NCBI GenBank assembly: GCA_003971905.1
Contig: RSEE01000093.1
Coordinates: forward strand, 239,353-259,352
Direction: 5' to 3'
Origin: Moniliella sp. 'wahieum'
Lineage: Eukaryota
Length of the DNA stretch: 20,000 nucleotides
The position numbers and the translations under genes were made by a program. Within the stretch, counting starts at the first letter, position 1, and each line of letters opens with the position of its first letter. Under the pieces are notes generated by a model. That model saw nothing but the letters and a program-made list of their open reading frames with translations. It did no database searches and was not told the DNA's origin. Positions 1 to 20,000 of the stretch are shown here, in pieces.

Positions 1-119
1 CTGGAGGCCAAGCCGTCACTGCTGCGACGGCGGCGGTGGCGGCGGGGGTTTGCGCCGGAGCCAGTGGCGGGGGCAGGGGGTGGCCCGGACGGGAAGGCAG
101 GGTCACTGTGGGTGTCCAT
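1..119 (-). CDS. Probable 5' end of a gene running off the left edge (MDTHSDPAFPSGPPPAPATGSGANPRRHRRRRSSDGLAS...), function unknown
   Basis: ATG at 119-117 on the minus strand opens a stop-free frame to the window edge. It is preceded by a pyrimidine-rich leader and a TATATA box about 80 bp upstream. No recognisable domain. Confidence 0.35.
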   Translation of the reverse strand, partial: MDTHSDPAFPSGPPPAPATGSGANPRRHRRRRSSDGLAS

Positions 120-200
120 GACGAGGGGCGGTGAAAGCGGTGGCGGGCGGGCGGAAGGGCGTGCGGGGGTGAGCACGTTGAGCGAGAAAGGGCGCGGGGG

Positions 201-206
201 TATATA
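201..206 (-). promoter_or_regulatory. Candidate TATA box for the minus-strand gene starting at 119
   Basis: Isolated TATATA in otherwise very GC-rich sequence, at a plausible distance from the ATG. Confidence 0.3.
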
Positions 207-963
207 TGAAAACCCCTCGTCCCGTCGTGCTCAACTCTGGGTTTCGACACACGGCCCTCGTGCCGCACCGCCCCGGGTGCGGACGCTCCCCCGTGGTGCT
301 GCTCGTTCTTTGGGCCGTACCAATGGCCCACTGCCCCGTGCTGGCCGCGGCCAGCGGCCTGTTTTCTCTTTGCGCTGCTCGGCGCCGCTCGCTCTCTCGC
401 AGGTACGTACCAGCGTTTAGCGCTTCTGGGCGCCTAGCCTCCAGCAGCTTAAGCCCGCCGCAGCGTGCATTGTGCATTAGTATTAGTTGCCGTCCAAGAC
501 TAACGCGCACCGCGTAACGTCTACTGCGCATCCCGACGAAGCTGGTTGCAGCGGGGACGGGGGCAGTGTCGCGTGCTGCGCCTCAGCGCCCCGGCTGAGC
601 ATGCGGGTGGCGTGCCGAGGCCGGGGGCGCACACAGGCAGCACACGCCCTGCACTGTGCCGCGATGCCTTGCCACCGCAGCACGCCGCAGGGGTGGGCGC
701 GGCGCTGAGGCTCCGTCGGCACGCGTCACATATCATACGTCATGCACATGCGTCATTCGTCACAGGTGACACATGTCACAGCGGAGGTCCACGTACCAAC
801 GGGCAGGGCGCTCCGCGGTAAAAAGCGGGTACAGCAGGCACAGCGTCCAGCGTCCAGCCGCACGCAGCCAACGCCGAGGTTGAAATTTGAAGCTGGAAGG
901 GGCACAGGGTGGCTGGTGGCGGGCGGCCACGAGTCAGCGCGAGCGCTCAGCCCTTCGGTCAAG

Positions 964-3900
964 CTGCAAGCTTCAAGCTTCAAGGGGCGCCAGGAGTGCC
1001 TGTATGCGTGGCTGACTAAAACATCCCAGCGCCAGTGCCTGGCCTGGCTGCAAGCATGCGTATTACGTGGGTAGCGTTACGTCGGGAACAAGCGTAGGAC
1101 GACACTGCCGCTGTGCCTTCCCCGCACTCGGCGTATGCTCTGGGGTGCGCCAGGGTGCTGGCCTCTTGTGGCATTTGAAATCGGACGCAGCTGCCAGAGC
1201 GTATGCGCCTGTTGCATGTTACGGGGGCTGACAGACTGGCGTGAGATGATTGATGCACATGGTAGGCCTCGCCTGTACAGGCAGCTAGCAAAGGTGGCTG
1301 GATGCAGGATGTTGGATGCTGTTCGGATGTGCGATCTGAGATCGGATGCATGATCCAGGGCCAGCGCTCCAGCGCGTTTGTATGTTGGTGCTGGTTTGGT
1401 GCCACCTGCTGTCATACACAGTTCGACCATTTTTGTCCATGTCAGGCCTCGGGTTGCTCATGACATGCATCAGCTGAGCGGCACCGTGGCAGCTGCTGTA
1501 ACCAGGCTGCGTCCGGCGTAAAGCTGTACCCCTGCCGCTTGCGTCCCCCCTGGCGAGGGCCCAAGCGTCAGTGAGAGGGTGGCAAACCAGCATCCTGGCT
1601 CCGTAGCGCTCACATGCTCAGGGCGACCTGTGACATGTGACCGGTGCCCTGTATATACATGTCGCACCAATGCATCAATCATCAGTTCCTTCTCGTATCT
1701 CTCTCGATGGGACCTGCGAGACGGAGAAAACGCAGAGGACAGAGAGCGAACACAGGCGAGAGCAGTTTCCGCGTCTCTCTCGGCCTCGGCAGCCTCGGCC
1801 TCGGCATCGAGTCTTCTCGGGCAAATCAAAACACATGCCTGCCGTCGCGATAAATGTGGCATCTCCATCCTAGCACAAACCCATTCGCGTCAAATGGCGC
1901 ATGTCACATGTTGTCACACTGCATGGCGTCACTCACCAGGCCTCAGATGCTAGTCGCCAATTGCCAGGTACTACTGAATCAAAAATGACAATCGTCGCCC
2001 ACGGTTACGTCACGCGTCACGCTAATGCCGCTGCGATACAAGCGTTACCGTTACGCGTTACGCGCAGGTAAGAACAGACGTTAAATTTTAAACGTGTCAA
2101 CGCGTAACGCGCAGAACGTCTGACCACATGCCCAGCCCCTTGTCCCTGCCAACTGCATCCTGCACATCGGCACGATCCAGCTCCAGGGGCACATCCATCT
2201 TCCAATGCCCATGCTCAGGGGCACCTGGGAGAGCCCACGAAATCCAGCTTAGTAGCACTGTGCGTCGGTGATGTGACCGTGCGGGATAGCAGGAAGAAAT
2301 GTGTGGGATATGGTACCGGCGCAACATACACCAGCGTACACCTTTGTCTTACATGTTACAAACGAGAGCAACATGAGAAGCAAGCCACCGCCTAGCTCGC
2401 TGGGGCCGGTCACGATAGGCCACTAGGTCACTACTCAGCCGGTCAGGTTATCTCTCCTCAGGACCTCGCAGGCCCTCAAAAACCAAGGACGGCCAGGCTG
2501 GTCAGAGGCTGCCTCACAGGCCTCAGGTAACCAACAAAAAAAACGAATGTGTGTGTGAATTATTGACAGGCCCGCGCGTCAAGGTGGCGCTAGACTCCCC
2601 CCTTTTTCCCTGTGGTGTGTCGGAGTACCAACACCTGCACCAGCACGCATCAGGGGCCTCACACGCGTCACGGGGCTTCACATATATATCAGCTACAGGA
2701 TAAACCCGCCGTGTCAATGCAAAAGCGGCTTTTACGAGCTTAATTAGCTGCCGGCGATCATCGATCAAAATTCAATGCGTGTTGTCTTCCGTTTACCTTT
2801 ACCGGTCCACAGACCACGGCGGCAATACGATGTGGGAGCGGAGAAGTGAAAGCGGCGAAGCGGAGACCGAAACCAAGGCTGGCACCGAAGTGAAAGGTGG
2901 CAACGGAAGCGGAATCAAACTTGCCGTGTCACGTGCCTGTCTCGCATTCTTTGTATGCTCTTCTAAGATCTAAGCGCTAGTAAGCCACGACGCCGTTCCG
3001 AGTCCCCCAGGAAGCAGATGATCGACGGAACTGAGGGTGTTTCTGCTGCTGATCGACATGGACTACGGAACGGTGGAGGATGGAACGGTAACGCGCTGGA
3101 GACTTGTGCGGGAACAGTCCTGGGCGCACCCATGACAGTTCCTCACGGACTTTCCCCGATAGGCAGGAAACGAGAGGAGGGGACAAGAGGGGGAGAGAAA
3201 AGGAGGGGGGAGAGGCCAACAGGAAGACTTCTGTTGTGCGTGGCCATGTAGTGCCCCAGCAGCGAGATCTCGCCTGCAATTTTCTGCTTCATATTTTCTT
3301 CTCTGGGCCTCAATGCGTTTGGTGCCGCGCCTGCAAAGAGAAGAGCAGGAGGTGCATACGGTGTATTATAGAAGAACAGAGATCAGGCACTGGTGGTGCA
3401 GTATTGCATTGCACATGAACTACGCGTGGAGTCTATGACGGTGGCTTCACCTTAGGACACAACAGGGGAATAGTGTCGGGGTAAATAGCGAGGAGTCAAT
3501 GGTCGACAATGACAAGGGTATGTGTATCCCCACGCGCCTGGACGAGGAAAATGTGGACGACAATGAGGTAAAGTCAAACGAGAAGAGCGAGAGACTAGTC
3601 TAGATGAAGTAGTGGCCAATCGCAATTTGAGGCGGAGCAATGACTCGGGACGGATGACTTGGAGTACAAAGCCATGAGGGCAGTTCCAGAGTGACATCCC
3701 TACCTCAGAAGCGTTCAAAACGGGTAAGGAGTGGTAGAATGAGAGTGCTGGAAGCTGGAGGATTAACGCCAAATACCACAGTTGGCGTGGGGGTTACATC
3801 AGAGGCCTGAATCATCAACAGTATCACGCGGCATGATGGTATTGGGCGAGGTGACACTGTTGGGGGCTCGGTGCGGAGGAATAATAAGGGTATACTACTA

Positions 3901-6900
3901 GCTGGAGTCGGTGGAGAAACGAAGAGATCGCACCCGGTTCGTCTCGGAAGATATATAGATACCTTTAGCGCCCACCCAAGAGGGACTCAGCTTCCAATAA
4001 GTCCGTGCAATCGACGAAAGATGATATGTGCATGTGGAATACTTCTGGGGAACGAGAGGGGCACCATGAAAGCTCCAGCGTAAGAGTATCAGGACAAGTG
4101 GCCTGTGTTATTAGTGTCAATGCCTTCACTGTGCACATAACCTCCCATTGCTACTATATTTGGGTTGGTGGTGAAGATGAAGATGGATAGATGACATTTC
4201 TGATGTCATGTTGAATGCAGATATGTGGTTGGTCGCCTCAAATAACGATCAACTAATGGTGGGTCCAGGTTTCAGCACCGACTCACGCCAACAAGGCCAC
4301 AGAGGCCTCTCGAGATTCCCAACAAACCCTTTCTTCTGGTGACGTTTATTGCATGCAGCGCCACAGCGCCAAATGAAGATCCAGGAAATGAGTCAAGAAC
4401 AGCGCAAGAACATCAACGAGGCATATGGCCGCCATGTGCCTGAGCACAGCAAACTGCGGCCAACTACACTTGACTTTACTCCATGCCGACAGCCAGGTGC
4501 CTTGAGAGCTCGCCGACAGCCATCAGGTCCCGATCGGCCTCCACATCATCCGTCCCTGGGCCGTTCCTCTCTCGCACACAGCACCCCGCCAAGAGTGTGA
4601 TCTGGTGTTACCGCTTCAGCACATCATGGCTTGTGCGTTCCCGCTCCCATCCAAGGCTGGCGCACTGCAGACTGTGCGGGAGCCGATCCGATATCATGTG
4701 CGCGCATCCCGGACACTCATGTTCTCACTGATCCCACCGAGGAGGAATTATGAGAGAGAGGAAAGACGTGGAAGGAAAGAAGGAAGGCCACAGGCATACG
4801 GCCGATCATGTCGATCATGGGAGAGGGAATGTTCGGAGGATCGGGGATGGAGTGAATCACACTCTGACTCAGGTACCAACGAGGACAAATGTGTCCCGAA
4901 AAAGGTGGTACACGAGGAGACAGCAAAAACGCCTGCGTGGAACATCAGTGGGGGCGCCGCATCTACTGTTTCATCAGCTGCATCATGCATCAGTAACAGC
5001 AATGCGCCAAGAGCGCCAAGAGTCAGATACGACTAAGAATGTGTCATTCTTTCCCCAGAGGTCATGTTTGATGGCACATGCCAGTGGGCGCTATAGCGGC
5101 AGCCTATAGGCTGCCACGGAGGTTGCCAGTAAATTGTTTGGGCATCCGAGGAAAATCTCATCATCGAAGAGTCTCATTCTGGGGTGCGGCCTTCCGTCTC
5201 CGTTCTCGACCCCCCCCTCTGTTTGCGCCCTCGCAGCGGGTTGTCATACTTTGGCTGATATCTCGGTCCCACCATTTCCAATTTTTTCGCGTCCCGCGAG
5301 CGTCTCGCTCTTTCCTTGTTTCTTGTTCCGCTTTTCCTCATGTCTTTTGCTCTTGTTTTGCCACGAACGATTTAATCTCGACTCTGGTCTCTCCTATGGT
5401 CTCCCTCGTCTTTGTTAGAGCCCAGAGACTGTAGGAGTGACACGGGTTATTATTATTGCCTTTTCTCCCACAAGTGATTGTGCATCCCCTACTGTAATTG
5501 CATCACTACCACATTCCTTCCCCTTGTCGTGCTCGCCTTCCACACCTCTACGCGGGAGGGGAGCTATCACCATCCGGTAACGGTTGTCCGCAATCGGTTG
5601 CGTGTGTTGGTTACGCACTCTGCGCGTACGACTCGTCCCAAAAAAGCACGAAACCGCAAATTAAACATGCCACTGCATAGCTTTACGGTGACGTGGTGAC
5701 GTGACGCGTGATGGCGTTCTGGCCTTGTCACACGACCGCAGTCCACATATGAGGAGGGCAGCCATTGTCAGGCACACCGCAGTTCACAGGCGGGGTTTGC
5801 ATTATATGCAAATCGTTTGGTATTCAAAATCGGTGTTTGGCGCCTCCGGCCTCCGTACCCGGCATGGTCAGCTTCCATGTCCCTCATCTCGTAGGATCTA
5901 AGCTCTATTAAGGCCCTAAGGCCTAAGGGCCTATAATAGTCCTTTTAGACACACTAGTCAGTCTGAGATCTGACTATTGAACGTTTTGAACGTACTATAC
6001 GTTGAACTGAATCGGGGCCATATCTGATTGCGGCAGAAACTCGTCCCTGGGCAACAGATTCCAAAAGCCTGAGGCTCAGCGCTGGGCGCCCGATCCTGCA
6101 GCAAGTGCATAACACTTGCGGATGCGTGACGCTGCGCGGTTACTCAATAGGTGCAGTTGCCCGGGACCGGCGGCCGGGGGGCCTGCGACCGATGGGCGAG
6201 ATGGAATTGGAAGGTGATGGACCGCGACCGGGCACGGCGACCGCTGGTATCGCCGGAGTACAGAGCGCCGGATGCTTTGGCCGAACGCCACTGGAGCAAC
6301 GCGTACAAGTTGCCGCGGGCCCAGCACTAGCCAGCAGTACGCGCAGTCCGCACCCTGTATTGAATTTGAGGTCTGAGGCCCTGAATACTGAGTCCGGGGT
6401 CTGAGACCAGGCACTGTTACTGAGTTTATACGTTCATTGTTCTGAATGCACTACTGAGTTAACTGAGTTATTAGTGACTAAAGAGCAATACATTAGCGCA
6501 CCGATTAATAATAAGCTGCTTTCTAGTTGCCATGGTAGTTACTGTGTATTAGGTTACTGCTGTCGCTGACTAGCAGCCAGGGGCGAGTCTAATGAGTAGG
6601 ACTTCCAAGTGGAAGCGATATGGCTACAATGTGAGCACCATGTGAGTGTGACATGTTGTAGGGGCGGGGTTTGTACCTAGTACTTCTAGAGTACTCAATC
6701 TTTAAGTGATGCATCTCTGTGATATATGCATGTGTGTTGCGTATCCGTATTCCTGTGTATCGATCGTGCATCCCAGGAGAAAAGCTGATCACAAAGACGA
6801 TTGTCACTATCCAGAACAACGCGTTGGGGCCAGAGCAGTACATCAATATGAAATGCCATTTAGGGGTGCATGGGAAAAACGGAGGCACTGTGAAGCGTCC

Positions 6901-8848
6901 GGTGTGATCAAAAGTGGAGAGAAGGCTGACGAAGGGACCCTCGGAGATGTATAGTATACTTTTGCGCTATACTCTTTCGCCGTTTGTAATATGCACATGC
7001 ATCGCAAGAACCAGACCCCAGTCCCGGGCCTCTGTTGGGAAGTATAGAGGGACGCACAATCGTTGAGTGTTGAGCGTGAGTGCCACGGCTTGAAAAATGC
7101 GAAATGATCCTATGTGTATACCCGTTACGTGTTACGTTGAACATTGAGGAGATAGGTGGGCTGTGCAAGTTTGAGCATTATCAGTGAAGAGACCTGCCAA
7201 AACTGTTAGGGGGGGCGTGTACAGAAAACGTGTTGCGCTGGTTCTGTCCTTGGGGGACAGAGATGCTTCGACGATCTGATCTATATCTGAAGGCTGCACA
7301 CAACACGGCCAACTAGTCCAACTGTCAGTCGTTTGGTGTGTGTGGCAACTTGAACATCCATACCGATCATCACAATTGTGCAGAAGGGTCTAGCCCTGGG
7401 CCATCCTCGAGCCCTTGTTTTGCCGAAAAAAAGCCGTGGACGCAGCAGCCAGCGTTAGCCGGTAACCAACGTTCACAGTATTCTGAGGTGGTGAGTCTGA
7501 GTACTCAACGGAGTAGTGACTACTAAGTGAATCGTGGTGGATAGTGACTAGTGACTAGTGAGATCTGAGAGTAGCTCAAAGCTTTTGCCTATATTATTGT
7601 ACTGTGTGGCGGGATGCTGTGCCAGAGCGCCTGAGCTCAGCGCCTCCGCGCCTTCGCAAGCCCTCGAAGGTTTCCTCTATGCCAAACGTGCTGCAGCTCT
7701 TACTGACAACGAGATGGAACGTATAGGAAAGGGGTTTGGTATAACTCAGCACTCACACGTCACATACCCAGTATACTCAGGGCGACCTCTTCTAATATGT
7801 ATGCAGCGGAGAAGATCTAAGATCATCGATCATATCAATCTGCATATCATATACTTCTTGGGGGGTTCCCCCCACACCGGCACGTTTTCGTTCTTCCGTA
7901 CACAACTGGCCCCAACGCAAGTTATTCAAGAGAGACATTGAGGGGCTGTGGTGCAGGATCTACCTTTAAAATTTGATGGCACCAACAAGTACTAAGGCCT
8001 GAAGATGTGCATGATGCACGTGACGGCGTCTCAATAAGCTGCTGAATCTTCGATGCACCTACTGCCATTGCCCATTTCTGTTTTGAGTACCTTGCGTATG
8101 ATCCAGATTCTAGGAACAGTTGTACAGCCAAAGCAGACCTACATTTGGCCCCGGATGTCCTTCGAAACGAAGCGTTCAGGAGGACACGGATCGGCCCTAC
8201 TATGATATATGGTACACTTGCGAGTATATAGTGTCCATCGTCTCGTATTGAGTATTGCAGATGCTGGAGAAGAGAAACCACGATCGATTGTGGTGCAAGA
8301 CGTTTGGGGTCTAGATTGATATCGACCTCAACGTTCCCATATCTCTCAGGCCTCATGGATCATCGATCATCAGGCCTCAACGTCTCAACGGCCTCAACGT
8401 CGGCCGACCTCGGCGTATTACTCAGTTACTCGGGTGGCAAGACGGCTACCACAGGCGGCACTCAATACTGCAACCACTACTTGAGTATACTGAGTACTGA
8501 GTACTGAGTATCCGTCGACATTTTGTTCGGTGTCCACCATACTCACCCCCCCCCTAACACAATCACCTGCCCGAGGCCTGAGGCCTGAGACTCAAGCTGC
8601 AGGAGAAGCGAGTCCGAGCGCTACCTACGACAAACTGTGTGGGACCGTCATACTTCAACGGCTTATTTGCCCAACTCTACTACCCTCCTATGCCAGCCTC
8701 TCACGCATTGAACAAAGTAGTCATAGTATATGCGTCCGGGCCCCGGACTTGGTCTGGATCCCTAGGGCCAACAGCTCGCTGTCGATGACTACAAGTACTT
8801 TTGGGTTTCAGTGTCCAGCGTATAGCATAGGGGCAATGAGCGCTGAGC
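964..8848. repeat. Dispersed tandem duplications of 7-bp odd palindromes (xyTNAy'x')
   Basis: Perfect tandems read directly: (CTTCAAG)2 971-984, (CGTCACG)2 2008-2021, (CGTTACG)2 2049-2062, (CCTAAGG)2 5915-5928, (AGTGACT)2 7543-7556, (GATCATC)2 8358-8371, (ACTGAGT)3 8489-8509. Many partial copies also occur. Confidence 0.85.
3452..4190 (-). mobile_element. Possible highly degenerate non-LTR (LINE/Tad1-like) retrotransposon relic, RNase H to CCHC region
   Basis: Minus-strand fragments in mixed frames occur in the expected order: FIFTTN, LELSWCPS (4078-4055, resembling the RNase H W(V/C)PGH motif), IGH (3620-3612), then C-H-C...RH...LLCP. All matches are short and imperfect. Confidence 0.2.
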
Positions 8849-9060
8849 GGCGCTGACCCAGCAGAGAACCCCGCGGACCACCAGGAGAGCAAGTAAAAAA
8901 GTACATATATCTCCGCTACGCTCTATATGGGATGCCTTTTTCCTTCCCACATATCCTCCCGTCCTACACACGAATCCTCCATCCCGCGTAGGGCAGCCGG
9001 TTTTTTCCCACCAATTTCTCATCGCCGAGATCAACCTGGACTTGTGCTACGGTAACCCCG

Positions 9061-10320
9061 ATGCCCCCATCCTCCAACTCCTACTCCCGAAAGCAGCAGA
9101 TGCCCCGCTGCAAGAACCCACGCCGTCAGAAGCTCGCTATCGAGCCCAGCAATGAGGGTGAGCATCGCACCTTCACATGCACCGTCTGTTCCCGCCAATT
9201 CCATCGCCTACTCCACCTCCAACGTCACGAGTACATCCACTCTGATAAAAAACCGTTCCAATGCCCTTGGTGCCCAAAGGTAAGTGTCTCTCCCTACTGC
9301 TCCCTCCTCCCCACAGTACAGGGCAATGAGTGCATAGTGTACTGATTATTTTTTTATCCTCAATGCAGTCTTTTACACGCCAAGACTCTCTTGTTCGCCA
9401 TGCTCGACTGCATGTCCAAGAAGGAGACAAGAAGATGGTATCTCTCTCACTCAACAGGCATAAGGGTATGTTTGTATCCAAATCAGTGGGCAATACTCTG
9501 TGACATGCTAACCCATCACGACCCGTCTTTCTTTTAACGATTATAGCGTGCATGTCCTGTACTGAAGAAGGGCAGTGCGAACGGTGCGCGGCGTACAATC
9601 GACGTTTGCTAAAGCGTAAAAACAAAGAAGACACTCTATCTCCATCTTCTCCTCCGCGCAAACGCACCTCTAGGAAGCCCACGAAGGAACCCAAACCTCC
9701 GGTACCCCCTCCGCTTCACGTGCCTCAATGGCAGGACCATGTTCGGCCCTCTCTTTCACCCATCTCGGCCGAGGAGAGAGCCCCACCAACCTGATTGAAG
9801 ACTGTTTCAGTCCAGATAGTGGGACGGGTAAGTGGCGCCTCGTTTGATCTTATGTGTTGAGGAGACGGATCTAACCCGACCCTGTTTTGCCCCCTAAGAT
9901 CCCTTGTCGCCTACCGCTACTCCCGAGCTGCTCCCACCAGACCAAACAAGAACCACTCGGGACCACAGTATTTCTTCGTCAGAGTGTGGCTCTCTCATGA
10001 GCGGTGGCGATGTGCTACCGTCCTACTTGGCTCCTCCTGTATTCTTTCCCAGCATGCTTACCCCCCGTGCATTTGTGGAACCTGGCGCCATGACCAACTA
10101 CACCCTCTCGCCCTCCTACGACTGCCGATCCCAGTCGATTTCCCCTTTTACGGCTCACTATGGTGGAACGGACCAGCCCCTTATTCCTACACCTCAAAGC
10201 GGATACTTTGATTCTTCCTTTTTCCCTACCATAACGTCTCCTGCTTCGATCCTTGCTAACACCCTTCCATCGATGGTGTCCAAGATCAACTGCTCGATAT
10301 GCTTCGCGCGTGCGAAGTGA
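9061..10320 (+). CDS. C2H2 zinc-finger transcription factor (two fingers) followed by a degenerate Zn2Cys6-like Cys motif and a Ser/Pro-rich tail; 4 exons, one frameshift
   Basis: Exon 1 9061-9279 encodes FTCTVCSRQFHRLLHLQRHEYIH-SDKKPFQCPWCPK. Intron 9280-9368 (GTAAGT..CTGAT..CAG) restores finger 2, CPWCPKSFTRQDSLVRHARLH. Intron 9466-9546 (GTATGT..GCTAAC..TAG) gives RHKACMSCTEEGQCERCAAYNRR. Intron 9828-9898 (GTAAGT..CTAAC..AAG) joins into the 9904-10320 ORF frame. One frameshift is needed between ~9674 and 9792. The 3' end is uncertain. Confidence 0.8.
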
Positions 10321-11063
10321 TGGAGCTTTCCCTTTCCTTACCTCGGGCTTCCTGAGGCGCATCAATTGATTCCCTTTTACTCTCCTCTGTTGTCCATCCC
10401 CCTCTATGGTCCATTTGTTGTCTTCCACCTAGTCTCCTATTCTGATTGACCTTCATGATCATGTACTGTTTCCTGGTTACCAGGTGTTGGCGGTAGGTAG
10501 GCGTGCACAATCATGTAGAGTCTCTTCCGCGACTGGGAGGTTTTCTTGCCCTAGAGGAAGGGCATCAGGTCTTTTTCATCCGTCGTGTCATTACATGATA
10601 ATATGGTGTTGGCGGAGGGAAATGAATGCTGGCGATTTGACCGGTTGACAAACATGCTCAAGATGGACGCTTGTCTGGGTTGATGCTCTCTTGCACATTC
10701 TTTTCCGGCAGCGATACAGAACCTCTCGACCAAGTTTTTTTAAAACTCCCAACATACACACACAGCGGCTCGAGGCGCACCCCGATCATCACCTCGATCA
10801 CATGAAACTGTATCGGGAACTGTTTGGAAGAGAGGAGAGAGTGCGGAAACATGGTAACGCGTTTACGGGGAGTTTATAGGTTTCGTGCCCGAGCCTGCGG
10901 TTATACTTCTGTTTTTTTATCCAAAGTGGAAAGATGCCCTCTCTCATACAGGTTCCCGGCATAGAGAAAAGCAGCGGAAGCGTCCGTAGTTGGACTCCTC
11001 TGGACAGGACGCCCATGCATCAATAATCGCCATGTATCCATAGTAACTCCAATGCAGGATACT

Positions 11064-11922
11064 TGTCACGGGGGGGTCCCGAGGTGGGACCCCCCCTGTA
11101 GTTTAGGGGTATAAACCCTTGGACAGGTCAATCGGTGGCTCGTACGTTAGGTCCTGCTCCAGATCCTGGTTGAACCGAGCGGGTGTAGAGGCTAGGGAGA
11201 GACCCTCTAGTTTGGGTGGCTGCCTGCGTGCAAAGGCCGCAGTCCAGACCCTCCGAGGTAGGAGCCGTGTACGTAGGTCGTTAGCCAGCTGAAGGGGTCC
11301 AGGAGCTCCGGAGCTACTCTGTTCCTCGCCGCGTTACCACACTCGGTACGCTGTAGCCGGCGGGAACAGACAGAGTCCTAAAGAAGAGCAAGCGCTACTG
11401 ATGTGAGTAACCGCGGCTTGCAGTGCACTCGACGTAAGTCGTAAATTCGTAAGCGTAAGGGTGGTAGAAGGTGGAAGGGCGAGAGAGGAACTGGTAGTCG
11501 GGGAGACCAACGGTAATAGACAGGATGGTCGACAAGGACCACAGCTAGCAAGCCATAGACATGGCTGCTTATATACAGCAGAGGGAACCAGGCCTCAAGT
11601 GCCTCATGACAGGTATAGACAGAATGCGGGGCACTTCCCAGAAAGGTAAAGAAGACTAATGCACAGCCCTTGCTTCCCAAGGCGCTGACGCTGCGCAGTC
11701 GGGCGCAGCAGGAAGGGTTCTGACAAGACTGGCCGCAATAGGCACAAAACATCGTACCGATAAGACCATGCGGCCATGGCAGGCCGCGGAGGATATCCGC
11801 AGCAAGGATAAGGTGTCGACTGGCTTTCTCTCGCTAGTCTAACCGAACTGACGCATGTTGGGCTGAGATGTCTACGACATGCGGGGCTCAGCGTCCGGAG
11901 ATAACCGGAGCGCCCCGTAACA
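11064..11922 (-). mobile_element. Solo LTR (859 bp) of an LTR retrotransposon
   Basis: TG...CA termini with 10-bp terminal inverted repeats TGTCACGGGG / CCCCGTAACA (9/10 match). Perfect 5-bp target-site duplication ATACT at 11059-11063 and 11923-11927. TATATAAG on the minus strand at 11575-11568, followed by pyrimidine-rich sequence, suggests minus orientation. No PBS, PPT or gag-pol is adjacent. Confidence 0.88.
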
Positions 11923-12633
11923 ATACTAGGTTGAGGGTGCTGCGCGGCTATAGTAAACCAGATTAATATAGTCTGGGACCGAGTGCCGGGAGTTCCAATA
12001 AGGGTCCTAGCCTAGAGCTGTTGCCAGATGGAGGGCGAGGGCGACGATATCTTTGGACACGCCCGTTCAGACAGCAGGCGAAGTGAGGCTGAGGCGGACC
12101 AAATATTGATGGAGGCGTATACTAGTACTAGGCGGGGCCGATGTATAGAAGTAGATGGGCCAGGCTGCGGCCATGCAGTCAACGTAGTGAACAGCAGGAA
12201 AACCAAGGGGCCCGAGGGGTGGACTAGGGTGAACTCACCCCCTCCTGCGCACTAACGTCGTTGAGCAGGCAAAGACACCGCGCGGGCGCATAACCGCGGA
12301 GCCACTGGTTCCGACAATATTGACGAGTTCTCTGTTGCCCTTCCGGAGCCATAGGAGCGGCTGCAACCCACACGCCGAGCCAGCGCAGTGGGGCACAATT
12401 CCGCCCCACGCCTGCTTTCCGCGCAGGGAGGCGCGCGAGGCACGGCTGAGGATCAACGTTCAACCCTAGCGCAGGTGGATCCGCGCTAGATCAGGCCACT
12501 GGGCCAGCCTTCCTCCGTCCTCAGCATTGAACGTTTCAACACCAGGCTGCCCCGTCCGACTGCTGTGGTCCTCCCCCAGCCCGAAGCCCCCAACACCATC
12601 CACCCCCTCACTCGGCCGCTCCCGCCCGCCTGC

Positions 12634-14403
12634 ATGCCAATCATCGTCCTGTCCTCGCCGCCGTCGCCGGCCCGCGCCGCGCTTCCCGCGTGCCTCATCG
12701 CCATCCAGCGTTCGTACTTAGCCCTCGCCAGCTTGCTGGTTGTGGCCGTTGGCCTCGCCTCGGCGTCCGCAGCACAGTCGCTTCCGTGCGGATGCCGCGC
12801 CCGACGTCGACGATGCCACCTGGGCGCGTCCTCTTCTGCGCAGCTTGCAACACCCCACCTTGCATCATCGGCCGTCTCTTCCGTGCGCTGCCTGGATCTC
12901 CATTGTGTGCGCTACGTAACGAGCAGCTATCAGAACGACCCGTTCCGCACCCTGCCGAGCTGTGCTCATCGGCTTTGCCCTGCGCACCATTCTCCAGCAG
13001 CGTACCCAGTCCCAGGCCTCCGGCTCGAACTTTGTCGAGCTCACCGCGGCCGAGATCGATGGACTGGTGACGACTTTAGTCCTGAGCCCCTCTGCACCCC
13101 TCTCGATGAGTTTGAGAAGTGGGACTTGGCCTCGGTCCCCCTCATTGTTGGACCCAACGGCCCGCGCCCTACGGTCAAGTCCGAAGCAGTGGGCCAGCGA
13201 ACCAGGGCTTGAACCTAGCTAGCTTCAACTTACCGATCTGGCGTCTGGACCCGAGATGAAGGAGCGCGCGATCCAGACGCTGCGCCAATACGGCGTTGGG
13301 TCCTGCAGTCCGCCTGCTTTTATGGCACGATTGGTGCGTTCCCGCCCTGTCCTGTTCTTGTTTGCCATTTGCTAACCTGCACATCCTCTCGTAGACGTCC
13401 ACATGGACCTTGAGGCCAACCTGGCACGCTTCCTTGGCACAGAGCGTGCGATCGTCTATCCCAGGGCTTCACCACCACCTCAGTGTTATCCCTATCTTTT
13501 GCAAGCGCGGAGACGTCATCGTTGCTGACCGCGGGTGAACTACTCGATCCAGAAAGGCATTCAGATCAGTCGGTCGAAGGTGCGATGGTATGAGCACAAC
13601 AGCATGTCTTCCCTGTCCGCGTGCTCGAGTCGATCACCCGGGACGATGTGCGCCCGCAAGCAGCCCCTCACCGCCGCTTCATCATCACCGAGGGCATCTT
13701 TGAGAACGATGGTCAACTGAGCGATTTGGGTGCGATTGTTGCGTTGGCCAAGAAACACAAGTTCCGCATTCTGCTTGACGAGGGTCTTTCTTTGGTACGA
13801 TTGGAAAGACGGGCAAGGGTGCGACCGAGTTGTTTGGGGTGCCGGCTACCGACATTGACATTCTGACGGGTAATCTGGCCAACACTCTTGGCAGTGCTGG
13901 CGGCTTTGTTGCTGGTTCGGCTGTCGTCGAGTTCCACCAAACGGATCAACTCGCCTGGGTTTGTTTACTCAGTGCTCTGCCGGCGCTCAATGCGGTAACC
14001 GCCTCGACTGCGATTCAGCGGCTCGAGACGGACGCCTCGTCGTTGCGCGTGCTGCAAGACAACATTCGCACGCTGCGGAGCGTGTTGGATACGTTGCCTA
14101 CAATTGACATTCCCTCGCACAGCCCCTCGCCCGTCATTCATATTCGCGTGCGTGCTGGGGAAAAGGAGCGGACCGTGGAAGAGCAGACGCGCTTACTGCA
14201 GGCCATCGTGGACCATGCATTGAACCAGGGTGTCCTCCTCGTCCGTTCTCGCCGCCTCCCCTCGATCAACCCGGCGGTGCTCGATACAAGCCCGACTCTG
14301 ACCCGACCATCCGAATTGCCGTCTCGTCGGCCTTCACCAAGTCCGAGATGGAGCTTGCGGCCAGGTACTGCGCCAAGCGATCGTTGACGTTCTGGGCCAG
14401 TAG
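12634..14403 (+). CDS. LCB1: Serine palmitoyltransferase subunit 1 (LCB1/SPTLC1); multiple frameshifts, start codon uncertain
   Basis: Conserved blocks across frames: [105 protein letters not shown]. The last lacks the PLP-binding Lys of LCB2, as expected for LCB1. Intron 13334-13394 (GTGCGT..GCTAAC..TAG). Stop TAG 14401-14403. Confidence 0.93.
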
Positions 14404-14570
14404 GCACCTTCCCCTTCCCCGTGCCCTGCTTGGATGCCGCTGCCCTCCTCCCCCTGACATGACAGAATGGTTCTATGGCGTGTAAGTGCAACCTGGCCCC
14501 TTTAAACGAAAGCAAGAAAAACAAGAAAAGAAAAACGCAAGATATGCCATGTTCAATCCTTCTCCCCTCC

Positions 14571-15609
14571 TTACTCTTCCAGAACTTGGGCCCCTCGTAG
14601 GAACAGAAAGGAACTGCACGTCGCACTCGATCTTCTCCTTGGCAAATTCACCCGTGATCGTGTTGGCAATGTGCGACAGTTGTCCGTCGCCAAGGCAGGA
14701 TGGTAGGTCCAGCGCGGAGAGACAGATGCCCAACAGCCCCGGGTGGGACGAAGGCGTGACGCTGGCAAGGATGCGCGGAAGACCTGGGATGAGTTGAGAG
14801 CGGTAGGGCTGGGGGACCTTGTCCTGCATCGCCTGGAAGACGAGGTTGACATCACAAGGGCTGCGGGCCAGGGCAGTAGTGAGAACAGCGAGCCCGTTGC
14901 AAGTTGAATACCAGGTCGTGCCGGGAAAAGGTGGTGGGCAAGACAGCCCGCGTTTGCAGTGGACACTTCAAATTGCGGGATGATCGCAATCACACGAATC
15001 TCGGCTGCCCAGCCAAACCGAATGTAGGCCAATTCCGCGCGGCGGGGATGGGGGGGTTGCGACCCCAGTCGGCCGACGCATCGGGCGGGTACTCGGGCAG
15101 GACCTCGGAAAGGGGCACATCTTTCGCCTCCGTGTCTTCGGGCGACAGCGAGCAAGTAGGAGCCCACCAAAGCCACCACCAGCGCGCGCGTCACATTGTC
15201 CGGGTGGCGCTCAATCATCAGCGCATGGTCCAACAGACGAGACGTGTCGAGCCCAGCTTTCCCAGCCGGTTGCCCAAACCACACCGGCCACCACAGCGGC
15301 GCCCGACGAGCCAAGCCGCGCCAAACGGTACCTCGTTGTGCACATCAATGACACCCTGCCGGGAAAGAAGGGACGCCGTTGGCACGCAGCACGTAGAGAG
15401 CAGTGCGGGTGGTCAGTTCTTGTACGCGTCCAACGGCGCATCCGCTGCGCCTTGACCCGTGTAGTGCAGCTTGGGCGCCGGGTTGGAGGCGGCTGGGTCG
15501 ACGGTGACGCGCAGCGTAAGGTAGAGGAAAGCGAGAGGCCAACAACGTCAAACCCAGGGCCAATGTTGGAGGAGGTGCAGGGCACCTTGATCGTGAAGGT
15601 CTCAACCAT
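14571..15609 (-). CDS. THR1: Homoserine kinase (GHMP kinase family); multiple frameshifts
   Basis: N-terminal MVETFTIKVPCTSSNIGPGFDVVGLSL, GHMP ATP-binding motif (L)GSSGAAVVAGV, MIERHPDNV, IAIIPQFEVSTA, and QDKV.QPYRSQLIPGLPRIL...HPGLLGICLS. Ends GAQVLEE-TAA at 14571. Confidence 0.95.
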
Positions 15610-15769
15610 GGGGGAGGAGCTGGTGGGGAAGGAAAGGGAAGGAGGAGGTGCTGATGGAGAAAAACTTCTGACTGGCCACCCACCGGAACGGACAAGGAGC
15701 GGACAATGTCATCGATAGATGATCTTTTTTGTCCGCTGCTCCGACCGGCCCGCAGCGAAAAGAAAACTT

Positions 15770-16216
15770 TTACTCAAAACCCAGCTGGTAAGCGGCAACC
15801 CTACTCTGCCAAAAAACTGCGCAGTTTCGCCCCCATCGCTCCACTTTGTGGCCTAGCCCTTTTGTGATTGTGACAAGCACGAGTACCACACACCAATGTA
15901 AGAGGAGCACAACCGGCAGCCACTGGCTACAATGCACGGTCAACGTGTCGGGCCTATAGGTGGGTTGGGACCAAGAACGGGAGAAAAAGGGCGATGAATT
16001 CGGAAGAATGAATAAGCTAACGAGACTGGCCAATGACACCACGATCATGAAAAATGTCGACCCAACGGAGAGCAGCAACAAGTAACGGAGCCTCCCCATT
16101 TGGGGCGGCAGTGGAATGTTGAGCGGCGTTGCCGGGCCGACGGCGGTATGTTGAGCTATTGCTGTGGAAACGATACTCTTGGCTGCCTTGGCGAAAGTGT
16201 CCTTGTCCCGTGCCAT
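15770..16216 (-). CDS. Small membrane protein (148 aa, two hydrophobic segments); weak architectural resemblance to PIG-Y/Eri1
   Basis: Intact ATG-to-TAA ORF filling the gap between THR1 and THP3 in the same orientation. Hydrophobic stretches LLLLSVGSTFFMIVVSLASLVSLFILP and WLPVVLLLHWCVVLVLVTI. The family assignment is only an impression. Confidence 0.5.
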   Translation of the reverse strand: MARDKDTFAKAAKSIVSTAIAQHTAVGPATPLNIPLPPQMGRLRYLLLLSVGSTFFMIVVSLASLVSLFILPNSSPFFSRSWSQPTYRPDTLTVHCSQWLPVVLLLHWCVVLVLVTITKGLGHKVERWGRNCAVFWQSRVAAYQLGFE

Positions 16217-16413
16217 AATACCAAGTTACTTCTGTGCTCGATCATCCGTCTTGGAGAGGAGCCGACTTGGGCACTGGTCAGCACTCAGGCGAAGAGCGAC
16301 GGGCAACCTGTTCAAAAAAAGAAAAAAAAATACGGGGAGGGAGAAGGAGAGGGAGAAGGAGAGGGGAGAAAGGGGAAATGCGATGGGGGTGGGGAGGGGA
16401 ACACGATAACCGC

Positions 16414-18065
16414 CTACAGCTGACCCTTGATGTCTACCCTCTTGAGCTTTTCGGCGGCAGTCAAGAGAAAGGCAGAGCAGCCCGCGTGTCCCACTTGCCC
16501 TCTCCTGCATACAGGTCGGCCTGCACAGAATGGAGGAATTCCATGACCTCCTGGGAAGACTGGAAGGCTAGCTCATCCTGGAAAAGGAAAGGGGCAAGCT
16601 GGGACGGTAGGCTCGGGCGAGCGTGAGGAGCGCTCGGGTGCGTTCTCGATCGGAGAAGGATCCATAATGTAGGCATTCATGTTGGGCGCAGAGGTGTAGA
16701 GGAAAAGAAGGCATGGTAGTCCCCGTTAGCAAGCCCTACGTACCCCTAACGCATGCTGCACTGCCGCGTCATCTTCCTCTTGTGGGCACCAGGCTGGAAG
16801 CTCACTGGGCGGGAGATCGGCAGAGCGCATTGAGTTCTTGCGGTTGCCCGTGTGGAGCAAATAGAGAATCCTGTATGCCGTGAACTCGCTGACTCGGCCG
16901 GGGATCCCCAACTCATACAGGACGAGGAGTTGGGATTGACACTGATTGTACTCGCCCAAGTCGCCCTTCTCAAGGGCAATACGGGCGTGAATCTCGTATA
17001 CTTGGACCGTAAATGGGTTCTTGATCCGTTGCACCTATTCTCATACACCACGCAGTTAGTTCCACCACCGCGACAGTAGCAAAAGAGACGCACCGTCAAA
17101 TCCTGTCGCAAACTCTTGAACTGGTCACAAATGTAAGCATAATTGTGTTCAGCCCGCCACTTCTTCTTCAGCAGGGCCAACGTCTGCTCCAACACGGGCA
17201 GTGGGCGCACTGTTCGGGGGTCAGGGGCCGAGGTGAGGCGCAAATATGGTTTTTCGAGTGCTGTACTGGTGCCCACAACGGTGTCCTTGTCCCAATCAAT
17301 AACGTTGGGGTCTTCCACTTCGGCGTCGACAAAGGCCGGAGCGCGGGGAAGAACAGCAGCCGGGGCACCATAAGCCATCGGGCGTGCCCAAAGGCGTGCT
17401 GGGCCGGGACAAAAGCTGGGGCTGAAGATGGTTGGCCAAATCGTGATTTTTTAGGAGGGGCCGCGGATGCGGTCAAGGAGGACGAGGGCGGTGGAAGGAG
17501 CGGGTCAGGGGCAGCTTCGAATCGGCGGGCGCGCTTGTCGCGGCGTGCTTGTTCTTCAGGGGTCAGTTTAGGCACGCCTCGCAATGCCTTGCGTTTGAGG
17601 GGTGTGGGCGCAGGCTGGAGAGACTTAGGAAGCGGGGCCTGTTCCCAGTCGGTGCTATGGATCGTCTGGCTGCTGTGGGCGGCGAACACGATCTGACGCA
17701 GCTCTTCGCTGACCGCATCGCGGTTCGAGTCGTCGGCCAGCTCGAAGACGCGTCTGGCGTACTTTCTTCGGGGGGGGGGGTCAACACCGGGCGGCGGCAG
17801 ATCAGCTCGCCGACGCACAGGGGAGACAGCAGACGCACTTGAGAGATTCGGGCCATGCGCCCATGGTGTGGCGGCGACGAGGGAGGGGGGGGTGGTGGTG
17901 GTGGTGGTGGTTGGGGTGGTGGTGGTGGTGGTGGTGCAGTGGGTGGGTGCCTGTGGATGCTGACAGCGGACCGCGGCGGGCGCAGCCGATTAAATCGCAG
18001 GGGCGGAGTGGGCGGGTTGCACCGGGCCGTGGCGGAATGGATGGGCTCACCCAGGCGGACACCAT
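16414..18065 (-). CDS. THP3: SAC3/GANP/THP3-family PCI-domain protein (Thp3/LENG8 type); introns and frameshifts, start uncertain
   Basis: Core sequence [41 protein letters not shown]...[50 protein letters not shown]...[10 protein letters not shown]-terminal WPESLKKYARRVF...TDWEQAPLP block and C-terminal [11 protein letters not shown] (16414). Introns 17838-17766 and 17093-17035 (GTGCGT..AG). The ATG at 18065 lies in a GCCGCCATGG context. Confidence 0.92.
17891..17935. repeat. (GGT)7-TGG-(GGT)7 trinucleotide repeat, probably a poly-Pro tract in the THP3 N-terminus
   Basis: Read directly. On the minus strand (CCA)n encodes [15 protein letters not shown]. Confidence 0.85.
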
Positions 18066-18164
18066 GGCGGCGGGGCGTTTCCGCGACGGACACGGCCACG
18101 GCAACGGGGCGGGTGGGCTGGTTTCGACGGCTGAGCCACCATCATCCCATGGCTGCTTGACTCC

Positions 18165-19162
18165 ATGGCCTGGGCCCTGGCCGCTGCAGTGCGTGTTGCC
18201 GGCGCTGGCGTCGCTGTGCTGGGCTCCAGCACCGCTGCCCTCCTCGTCGCGCGCGCAGCCCCGCTGCGGCTGCGCTGTCCTCGACGCTGCTGCCAGCGCA
18301 GCGCTTCTCGGCCTCAGTCTCGGCCTCGCGGCGCGCTGCCGCGCATGTGTCGCCAGTGCGCATCCTGCTCTGGGCCACACATACAGCAGCAGCTCCACTT
18401 GTCTTCCTCCTCTCCTCCTCCCCTTCTCTAGCCACGAAGAGCACGAACTCCAAGAAGCTCGCGCCGGCCTCTTTGGCGCTCTGCTCTTGCTCGGCGTCTT
18501 CCTGCTATGGATTTCGACAGTGTTATCGCGGCTCTTCCCTGCCTATGGCACAGGAACAGGGGTACGCTCCCTTGAAGTCACGGTGCACGATTTGAAGTAC
18601 CCCGATCCCCATCCTGCTCCGGTCTCCCGCCCCCTGGTCTGGGCCATCCCGAGTCTCACGAGTTGGCCGAGTGGGACGCTGATGATGCGGATGAATCGAG
18701 CGGGGCCGAAGAAGAAGAAAGGGAGTCAACACCACAGCCGCATCTTCGCACCCGTCGCCCCCGGCAATTCCGTCCCCCTCGTGCTAAGCGGCGCCAGCCA
18801 TCACGATGGCATGTCCTCTCTCCCGCTGGGCGGTACTCGGACGTACTCGACCTTGTACTGCCTCCTCGTGCCGGTGGACCCGGCTCATATCCGACCAAGT
18901 GTTGGTCAGTGCAGCCGTTTACATGTGCCACTGTGCCTTTCAGCTTGGCTCTGACGCTTCGTTCCTGCCTCTCGTTCCGGCCATATCGCTGAGCACGAGC
19001 GCCGCCTTGTTGCTTGGCATTCGACTTGGCCGTCCTCCACTCTTTATGCCGCTCATCTGGGCTGTGCCTTTCGTGCTTGTAGGGTGGCTGGCCGGGGCAG
19101 TTTTCCCGCTGGAACCCAGGTGCCTGGTGGGACGGACGATCGTGGCGGGCATGCTGCTGTAG
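18165..19162 (+). CDS. Multi-pass membrane protein, possibly a divergent PIG-F/GPI11-like protein; frameshifted
   Basis: ATG 18165 opens a hydrophobic N-terminus (MAWALAAAVRVAGAGVAVLG). Further hydrophobic blocks across frames are LFGALLLLGVFLLWISTVL, YCLLV.GGP, SLALTL.FLP and AVPFVLVGWLAGAVFPLE. Their order recalls PIG-F (LFGAP ... GAWLGAxPIPLDW), but the DWDRPWQ motif is not visible. Confidence 0.4.
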
Positions 19163-19533
19163 TGTCGGTGCGCAACCTCCACGACTCGACCATCCTTTTT
19201 GACCAGCTAGTCGCGTGCCGCCGTTTCAGCCATGTCCCCTGCACGACCACGCCATCGGATCCGGCGGACTCGCTCGATGCACTTGCCCTGCTGCTGCGGG
19301 TCGAGAAGCACATGTGCACGCCCGTCCCGCTCCACCCTGCCCACTTTCGCTCTGCCGATGTGGCCAGGCCGAGCGCCATCGCCTGCTGCGCCCTTGGCTA
19401 CGGCTGCTGTCATGGCGTGGCCGCGTGGGCGCCGAGCGTGATGGTGTGGCTCTTGTCATGCCGGGAGCAGGCAATGCCGATACCCCATTGTATCTGCTGG
19501 GTAGACAGATGGGAGGCAGAGACGGAAGGTAGA

Positions 19534-20000
19534 TCAGCTTAATGATAGCAGAGCGCGCCTCTGTGCGGCGGAAGCGCTGACGTCAGACCATTCCAGACTG
19601 GATCCAGACCGGCCGATGTAGGGTTGGGCACGCGGCCGCCCTCCGCGCCGCCCGCCGCGCCCGCCGGCTGCGCCCCACACTCCTCCTCCGCCCGTCGTCT
19701 GTGCCATGCGCGCCGGCGGCGCGCTCTCCCGCCGAGCCGCCGCCGCTGGCGACTCGGCCGGCGCCTCTCCCGACAACCGCAGTTGCCTCCGCCCTCGCCG
19801 CCCTCCACCAGCAGGTCCCTCCCCTCGCCTCGCCGCCTCCCCGCCCGCCGGCCCAGACCCAGCCCGCGCTCAGCGCCCTCTCCGCCCTGCTCACCACCGT
19901 CCTCTCCGACGCTGCCCCGACGCACCCGGCCTGGCCCGTCTCTTTCAGCGTGCGTTCGTCCGCGCTGCCATCGAGCACGTCGGTGCCGACCTCGCTGCCC
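19534..20000 (-). CDS. Probable low-complexity 3' end of a gene entering from the right edge, function unknown
   Basis: Very GC-rich, stop-poor minus-strand frames (GSEVGTDVLDGSADERTLKE...; ...SSLEWSDVSASAA...LLSLS-TGA). No recognisable domain, and frameshifts are likely. Confidence 0.35.

Follow-up and report, generated by a model that had tools for sequence, protein, structure and literature searches.

What process could write one short, symmetric pattern into a stretch of DNA many times over, each time in different letters? The question is raised by a 20,000-nucleotide stretch of contig RSEE01000093.1 of Moniliella sp. 'wahieum' (positions 239,353 to 259,352; referred to here as the window, with coordinates counted from its first base), in which bases 1-9000 carry tandem pairs of 7-base units of the form xyTNAy'x', a central TNA triplet flanked by complementary two-base arms. 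An original prediction, made from the sequence itself, had listed seven perfect tandems starting at 971, 2008, 2049, 5915, 7543, 8358 and 8489 (the last with three units), together with partial copies at 1629, 1902/1912, 2756, 7821, 2962, 5700, 5962, 7123, 8577, 8842 and 12458, and all of these were confirmed. It had also read them as the product of a mutational process rather than as binding sites, and this view stands, with period and symmetry being kept while the arm sequences vary.

A 7-base tandem format far above chance

The tandem format is real and lies far above chance. Scanning 1-9000 with the model (xyTNAy'x')2 gives 7, 16 and 33 loci at zero, at most one and at most two mismatches respectively, against means of 0.003, 0.053 and 1.25 (maxima 1, 1 and 5) in shuffles of the same bases; the rough estimate made earlier, of about 0.002 expected in 9 kb, agrees with the shuffled value for exact matches. 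Each of the 15 other centre pairs yields at most one exact locus and at most three loci at up to one mismatch in the same scan, and 9001-20000 contains 0, 1 and 2 TNA loci at the three thresholds.

The same signal appears when perfect tandems are counted irrespective of their sequence, with 300 dinucleotide shuffles as the control. There are 13 perfect period-7 tandems in 1-9000 (shuffle mean 0.42, maximum 3) and none in 9001-20000; nine of the 13 have a palindromic rotation (shuffle mean 0.037, maximum 1), and all nine are TNA-centred. Period 6 gives six perfect tandems and period 8 gives two, none of them palindromic, against shuffle means of 1.75 (0.09 palindromic) and 0.10 (0), whereas weak echoes are seen at period 5 (11 tandems, eight palindromic, against 6.8 and 1.9) and period 9 (two tandems, one palindromic, against 0.03 and 0). 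The excess at TNA centres and period 7 holds in 1-9000 against shuffles, other central triplets and 6- and 8-bp periods, the comparisons that the original prediction had proposed genome-wide. At lag 7 we counted 46 runs of at least five matches, compared with 7-24 for lags 3-24. The eight palindromic 5-base tandems in 1-9000, which lie between 696 and 7852, have a unit consisting of a 4-bp palindrome plus one base, and shuffles reach up to seven of them; two of the eight have a TNA centre, and in 9001-20000 four of 17 5-base tandems are palindromic.

As a natural control we used 80 fungal metagenome loci around homologues of THP3, a gene represented in the window, totalling 811,394 bases. These contain no exact TNA locus and nine with one mismatch, within the range of the other centres (5-20). 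A 12-base format, [TNAw1w2][w2'w1'][TNAw1w2], occurs 29 times (18 loci) in 1-9000 against 0.07 expected, and seven times in the natural control against 6.2 expected. Within the window, 25 of 92 non-coding TNA-palindromic heptamers are in tandem but none of the 18 genic ones (Fisher p=0.011).

Anatomy of the repeats and a proposed footprint model

Read in register, the arrays follow the grammar [L-TNA-L']n [L-TNA-R] [R'-TNA-R]m, in which a hybrid unit (h) with unlike arms is accompanied by palindromic units (P); the types seen are PPhP, hPP, Ph (eight times) and hP (four times). The central N is identical between units in all perfect cases, and among cores consisting of a TNA, a 4-bp palindrome and a second TNA, 24 have the same N (0.55 expected by chance) and three a different one. 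Among structured pairs, N agrees in 13 and differs in one, and the (xyTNAy'x')2 variant with complementary N has no exact locus. Because N is identical and never complementary, the second unit is a direct and not an inverted copy. A complementary N would be expected under whole-unit fold-back, odd-hairpin and paired topoisomerase-I cleavage, and these models were rejected.

The flanks of these cores show where the symmetry comes from. The period carries on into one flank or both in 21 of the 24, with eight having both flanks matching, six having one full flank and one of two bases on the other, and seven having one full flank and neither base on the other; in none of the 24 are both flanks wholly unmatched. 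The class with two adjacent outer mismatches, seen seven times, would be expected about 0.6 times if 14-mers decayed independently (a hand estimate). Since at least one flank matches fully in 21 cores, the junction palindrome comes from one side. Moreover, in at least 13 of the 24 cores one neighbouring unit is a non-palindromic hybrid, and at one-mismatch loci nine of ten mismatches fall in positions 1-3 or 12-14 (binomial p=0.003), from which it follows that the complementarity of the arms was made by the event. A preference for symmetric TNA targets, proposed in the original prediction, is therefore not borne out, since symmetry of the target is not required. Nor can a 7-bp duplication of a palindrome that already existed yield hybrid units, and that model was likewise set aside.

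The original sequence is taken to be an ordinary non-palindromic heptamer nnTNAnn, represented by the hybrid unit. Each event adds exactly seven bases, and consists of a direct copy of the heptamer together with a rewriting of the junction, with two (or three) junction bases of one copy giving way to the reverse complement of those of the other. Scored as direct plus inverted bases, a 5+2 format fits 23 loci and a 4+3 format 26 loci (chance about 0.55 per orientation), and the direct repeat spans at least 4-5 bases, always extending past TNA. The earlier wording, with a 4-bp palindrome between two copies of a TNA triplet, is correct as a description, but a 3-bp duplication with four templated bases (3+4) fits no locus.

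To describe the centre without presupposing it, we used an 11-base pattern, [N b W][W' b'][N b W] with |W|=2, in which two copies of a 4-base sequence enclose the reverse complement of its last three bases and b denotes its second base. This pattern was found at 25 loci for b = A, at two for C and at none for G or T (chance about 0.27 each); |W|=3 adds two further loci and |W|=1 gives a weak excess only. The same format is found with imperfect centres (GGA, TCC, ACA) at a few loci. The TNA preference is strong and yet leaky, much as is usual for the target preferences of transposons. The arms, by comparison, are free: the 16 tandem loci have 13 different units, and all four bases occur at both arm positions.

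We tentatively favour the interpretation that the loci are footprints left by the excision of a cut-and-paste DNA transposon, or by an enzyme that shares its chemistry, an interpretation that may well be correct but that we hold short of conviction. From a format, statistics and specificity that are observed directly, we infer a hairpin step, a nuclease and, above all, a transposon. The element would insert with a 7-bp target-site duplication, preferring nnTNAnn, with T and A beside the central base. Its excision would close the flanking DNA as blunt hairpins, and a host hairpin nuclease would nick these two (sometimes three) bases off the tip, giving each end a self-complementary overhang of four (or six) bases. 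One overhang would be kept and filled in and the other clipped before the ends were joined, one side gaining two or three bases and the other losing as many. The product would always be 14 bases long, xyTNAw1w2 / w2'w1'TNAw1w2 or the mirror form, with one unit being the untouched original heptamer and the other a now perfect palindrome. Because every such scar recreates two TNA sites, arrays could grow, with re-insertion and re-excision lengthening scars into runs of palindromic units that end in a single hybrid (original) unit.

The hairpin signature lies in an inverted tract that abuts its template without a spacer, beside a direct duplication and with total length unchanged; a spacer-free inverted copy beside a direct target duplication, as expected of hairpin or P-nucleotide scars in general, is what we find at 24 cores against 0.55 expected. 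None of the 13 perfect tandems is a non-palindromic one containing TNA, consistent with hairpin opening that would always rewrite the junction. The footprint model would explain the fixed length of seven, the identical N, the leaky TNA preference and the sequence-free complementarity of the arms, as well as the near-balance of left- and right-handed scars, the lack of unmodified non-palindromic duplications and the growth of arrays. The confinement of the scars to non-coding DNA also counts in its favour. The best fit joins the first two mechanisms listed in the original prediction, with a 7-bp target duplication that is retained and repair by hairpin opening (P-nucleotide-like). A second unit made as an inverted copy is excluded.

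Loci, regional palindromes and neighbouring genes

The loci, their relatives and the genes of the window are collected in Table 1.

Table 1. Tandem loci, related repeats and genes in the window. Units are separated by spaces; 5+2 and 4+3 give direct plus inverted bases.
Position	Strand	Sequence or feature	Remarks
767..780		TGACACA TGTCACA	Hybrid (centre ACA) then palindromic; 4+3 format only
957..984		GGTCAAG CTGCAAG CTTCAAG CTTCAAG	Left-end hybrid GG-TCA-AG, three inserted palindromic units (first with T>G)
1298..1318		CTGGATG CAGGATG TTGGATG	5+2+5 format, non-TNA centre GGA
3748-3761		Non-TNA kin of 1298..1318	Centre GGA
5843-5856		Non-TNA kin of 1298..1318	Centre TCC
1629..1642		TGTGACA TGTGACC	Palindromic then hybrid; inferred original TG-TGA-CC
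2008..2021		CGTCACG x2	Two palindromic units, no hybrid visible
2043..2064		CGTTAC- CGTTACG CGTTACG CG	About 3.3 units, first short by one base
2079..2092		CGTTAAA TTTTAAA	Hybrid then palindromic
2096..2109		GTCAACG CGTAACG	Hybrid (centre CAA) then palindromic; 4+3 format only
2347..2360		TCTTACA TGTTACA	Hybrid then palindromic
2514..2527		TCACAGG CCTCAGG	Hybrid (centre ACA) then palindromic; 4+3 format only
2659..2672		TCACACG CGTCACG	Hybrid (centre ACA) then palindromic; 4+3 format only
2756..2769		GATCATC GATCAAA	Palindromic then hybrid
2962..2975		TCTAAGA TCTAAGC	Palindromic then hybrid
4981..4994		CATCATG CATCAGT	Palindromic then hybrid; overlaps perfect tandem TGCATCA x2, 4979-4992
5700..5713		CGTGACG CGTGATG	Palindromic then hybrid
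5907..5928		ATTAAGG c CCTAAGG CCTAAGG	Hybrid, extra base, two palindromic units
5962..5975		TCTGAGA TCTGACT	Palindromic then hybrid
6453..6481		Period-9 kin, ACTGAGTTA x2	Then abutting second 11-base TGA-centred palindrome, other arms
7123..7136		CGTTACG TGTTACG	Two units; only one-mismatch locus mismatched at the junction (position 8)
7543..7570		AGTGACT AGTGACT AGTGAGA TCTGAGA	Two left-type palindromic units, hybrid AG-TGA-GA, one right-type palindromic unit; clearest array
7809..7834		GAGAAGA TCTAAGA overlapping GATCATC GATCATA	Two adjoining loci
8201..8214		TATGATA TATGGTA	Two units, one mismatch (position 12)
8351..8371		CCTCATG GATCATC GATCATC	Degenerate hybrid, two palindromic units
8483..8510		Period-9 kin GAGTA TACT GAGTA into ACTGAGT x3	
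8570..8590		CCCGAGG CCTGAGG CCTGAGA	Two palindromic units (first with T>C), then hybrid CC-TGA-GA
8835..8848		AATGAGC GCTGAGC	Hybrid then palindromic
12451..12464		GATCAAC GTTCAAC	Hybrid then palindromic; only locus outside 1-9000, in the 10.3-12.6 kb intergenic stretch
~9.1-10.3 kb		C2H2 zinc-finger gene with introns	Adjoins the gene-free bases 1-~9100
12.6-14.4 kb (12640-14400)	+	Serine palmitoyltransferase (LCB1) gene	
16.7-17.5 kb	minus	THP3-like PCI-domain gene	

The tandems lie in a region that is rich in odd palindromes more generally. There are 210 with arms of at least three bases in 1-9000, compared with 149 ± 11 in shuffles, and 25 with arms of at least five, compared with 9.6 ± 3.2; no such excess was seen in 9001-20000. 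The excess is restricted to TNA centres, at which the counts are 449, 176, 82, 28, 16 and 7 by rising arm length, dropping 2-3-fold with each arm step and not about 4-fold. The period-7 model leaves unexplained a few TNA palindromes that abut and agree in N while differing in their arms. The two 11-base palindromes TAACTGAGTTA and TTAGTGACTAA, which abut at 6460-6481, have the common centre TGA and differ by complement swaps at four mirror-symmetric arm positions (2/10 and 4/8); a similar different-arm pair lies at 8007-8025. A few of the different-arm pairs (6465/6476, 8013/8022), but no period-7 locus, can be accounted for by hairpin loops together with a 3-bp TNA duplication, and this model was dropped.

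Several other short repeats were noted. The 10-mer TCAGGCCTCA occurs twice, at 8346-8355 and 8370-8379, 24 bases apart and bracketing the GATCATC tandem, and 1-9000 contains a dozen or more occurrences of AGGCCTSAG variants. Just upstream of the first scar locus, at 721-780, is a run of CGTCA/TGACG half-sites spaced by about 7-8 bases (TRF period 7, 4.4 copies, 75 % match). Two perfect 7-base tandems have neither TNA nor a palindrome, GTGCATT x2 (465-478) and CAGCGTC x2.6 (841-858), and these may be unmodified duplications or ordinary slippage. A self-BLAST of 1-12600 revealed no dispersed repeats, its sole matches being two perfect even palindromes, of 18 bases at 5098-5115 and of 16 bases at 340-355.

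Bases 1 to about 9100 have no protein-family match among the 43 reading frames searched there with Pfam; over 52 reading frames of the window, Pfam returned only the C2H2 finger and a weak SAC3/GANP match, neither of them in 1-9000. An Rfam search of the window gave no matches. The best database relatives of LCB1 are from Tilletiaria and Exobasidium (46-48 % identity) and that of THP3 is from Tilletiaria (78 % identity across the conserved part), all Ustilaginomycotina; the window is fungal DNA, from a smut-related fungus. The LCB1 reading frame shifts at least ten times relative to the Tilletiaria and Exobasidium homologues, and each of four shifts inspected is one base short in a homopolymer run. 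Because bases drop out of runs of identical bases, we regard this as the mark of an unpolished long-read assembly rather than of an LCB1 pseudogene; the assembly is error-prone and probably built from long reads. The GC-rich DNA (about 68 % GC) separating the THP3-like gene from the reading frame that follows holds a (GGT)15 microsatellite at 17891-17936.

Known systems, rival explanations and significance

Several well-known systems share part of the anatomy described here. V(D)J coding joints arise by off-centre opening of blunt hairpins, which leaves even palindromic P nucleotides; Transib makes a 5-bp duplication; the target triplet of PIF/Harbinger is TNA-like within a palindromic extended target; and the excision chemistry of P elements differs from the present format. 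V(D)J and Transib-RAG resemble the present loci in their even palindromic P nucleotides and in the hairpin step (PMC5499845). A Transib-like 5+2 event fits most loci, but it needs an asymmetric target, with TNA at one end, and P nucleotides that always come from the other end. PIF/Harbinger is alike in having TNA at the centre of the site, and canonical Harbingers make 3-bp duplications (PMC12730594); a 3-bp TNA duplication was nonetheless rejected, as the 3+4 format has no locus and, in 21 of 24 cores, the repeat runs on for two more bases to the left, to the right or both ways.

Hairpins on flanking DNA, opened by host enzymes such as Artemis and resolved by end joining into footprints, are described for hAT, Transib, RAG and MULE transposases (PMC5499845). 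In the fungus Candida, Ds footprints include palindromic P-nucleotide insertions, Pso2 is the hairpin nuclease in yeast, and the Ac/Ds footprint palindrome is centred on the complement of the element-adjacent base (PMC5873905). The present loci are like those of Ac/Ds in that both copies of the target duplication stay, with short inverted (P-nucleotide) tracts at the joint that are attributed there to flanking hairpins, an Artemis/Pso2-type nuclease and end joining (PMC5873905, PMC5499845). They differ in duplication length, which is 8 bp in Ac/Ds and 7 here, and in having an even junction (w2/w2') and about one scar length, compared with the 28 distinct footprints described for Ds in Candida (PMC5873905). 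Canonical hAT footprint chemistry was rejected, in that parses with a complemented central base all fail (same N 24 against 3 times, no exact inverted variants). We do not file the loci under hAT because their junction palindromes are even and N is uncomplemented.

A period of 7 and not 8 would fit, within hAT, only the hAT7 group (PMC12730594). Both hAT7 (rust fungi) and Kyakuja (Laccaria) are basidiomycete DNA transposons with 7-bp target-site duplications equal to the period seen here, the only feature compared for Kyakuja/KDZ; the available text and supplement of that source do not report them from Ustilaginomycotina and contain neither target preferences nor footprints, the supplement listing consensus sequences, and the window has no copy (PMC12730594). 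Galileo, of the P superfamily, is similar in its 7-bp duplication and odd-palindromic target consensus, which lies inside a 15-bp palindromic target motif, but it is an insect element with the base-specific target GTANTAC and centre ANT (PMC4168063), in contrast to TNA with free arms. Beyond general transposon papers, a literature search for 7-bp duplications or footprints in fungi returned only hAT7/Kyakuja and Galileo. The scar geometry is undescribed in every transposon family that could be checked.

A number of observations weigh against excision footprints. The window contains no transposon, terminal inverted repeat or transposase domain, and searching it for 7-mer direct repeats flanking inverted termini gave nothing credible, so that an intact element of the kind that the original prediction proposed to look for was not found there; a metagenome scan with the flanks of the 8489 array, seeking an allele, had no matches. 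The density of about 25 loci in 9 kb, with 25 of 92 non-coding TNA-palindromic heptamers affected, would be very high if these are footprints and implies very many cycles of insertion and excision within a single region. The footprints are also unusually uniform in length when set beside Candida, where Ds left 28 different ones, and they have an even junction palindrome, unlike Ac/Ds (PMC5873905). Five arrays (2008, 2049, 5915, 8358 and 8489) have palindromic units only, although a degenerate hybrid unit adjoins three of them. Finally, 5+2, 4+3 and 6+1 events are indistinguishable at a TNA centre, and the parses, including seven bases with replacement, are equivalent on most loci. Overall, the interpretation given in the original prediction is partly supported.

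Other processes could produce some of these features. Transposon-independent break repair, in which fill-in at a nick or staggered break close to TNA goes astray, the polymerase or ligase turning back for 2-3 bases onto the displaced or the complementary strand (by fold-back overshoot or template switch) before rejoining, would leave a 7-base insertion of the same anatomy, made up of 4-5 directly copied and 2-3 inverted bases. With T and A at ±1, a TNA copy could pair with itself in antiparallel, an endogenous process accounts more easily for the high density, and no transposon is seen in the window. We nevertheless consider this rather unlikely, as an inverted tract abutting its template without spacer or microhomology is typical of covalent hairpins and not of polymerase switching, the self-complementary centres ANT, CNG and GNC are unused, and only a nick placed site-specifically, precisely two bases from TNA, would account for the A/T requirement and for a length that is fixed at 7 in about 25 loci, when periods 8 and 9 have about 2-4 each. 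Generic microhomology-mediated tandem duplication was rejected, as it predicts many periods and non-palindromic units. Slippage, by which existing nnTNAnn mini-palindromes were duplicated and expanded in the manner of microsatellites since looped-out units fold, gains something from the existence of arrays of 3-4 units and from the predicted folding of three-unit arrays (-2.5 to -6.8 kcal/mol, 9 of 9). Single units, however, are predicted at 0.0 kcal/mol in nine of nine cases and two units at 0 to -1.2 kcal/mol, giving no thermodynamic basis for the first duplication; about a quarter of the available palindromic heptamers would need to be hit; and the TNA specificity and absence of periods 6 and 8 are unexplained. 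Nor can slippage produce hybrid pairs or the 12-base class, a 5-base direct repeat with two inverted bases, and in seven cores both outer bases are unmatched on one side. A microsatellite would be made of whole units only, whereas we find TNA-centred units alone and hybrid-plus-palindrome pairs with only five matched bases, so that slippage seems improbable.

An artefact of an error-prone long-read assembly would draw on the frame shifts in LCB1 and the homopolymer losses at all four places inspected. Single-base errors do strike genes, whereas duplicated heptamers do not (0 of 18 genic against 25 of 92 non-coding, p=0.011); an artefact would yield exact copies, whereas the copies here have diverged (seven exact, nine further with one mismatch and 17 further with two), and hybrid units exist. 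We know of no base-calling error of such a form, and an artefact is very unlikely. The position of the loci upstream of the zinc-finger gene, and the recurrence of a few motif cores (CTSAG, GTSAC, GTWAC, ATSAT), would suit a long regulatory region in which a dimeric DNA-binding protein occupies arrays of sites. The varying arms provide no conserved half-site, and the exact 7-base register, the identical N and the hybrid end units speak of copying and not recognition, making binding sites extremely improbable.

Returning to excision footprints, it is possible, though doubtful, that their source is an undescribed and highly active hairpin-forming transposon, or a domesticated transposase, with a 7-bp nnTNAnn target, which would make its own landing sites and 'footprint microsatellites' and be a major source of intergenic insertions in this lineage. 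So dense and regular a record of repair scars is unusual. If the footprint interpretation is correct, a single 9-kb desert preserves about 25 independent excision events in one readable format, and the scars would reveal the target motif (nnTNAnn), the stagger (7 bases) and the hairpin geometry (a blunt tip, opened at +2/+3) of an element that is itself unseen, as well as an end-joining rule by which one overhang is kept and one is clipped. The single-copy allele of each locus in related strains would be expected to be the hybrid heptamer. Transposon scars would then suffice to give rise to short palindromic tandem repeats and to raise the number of odd palindromes in a region.

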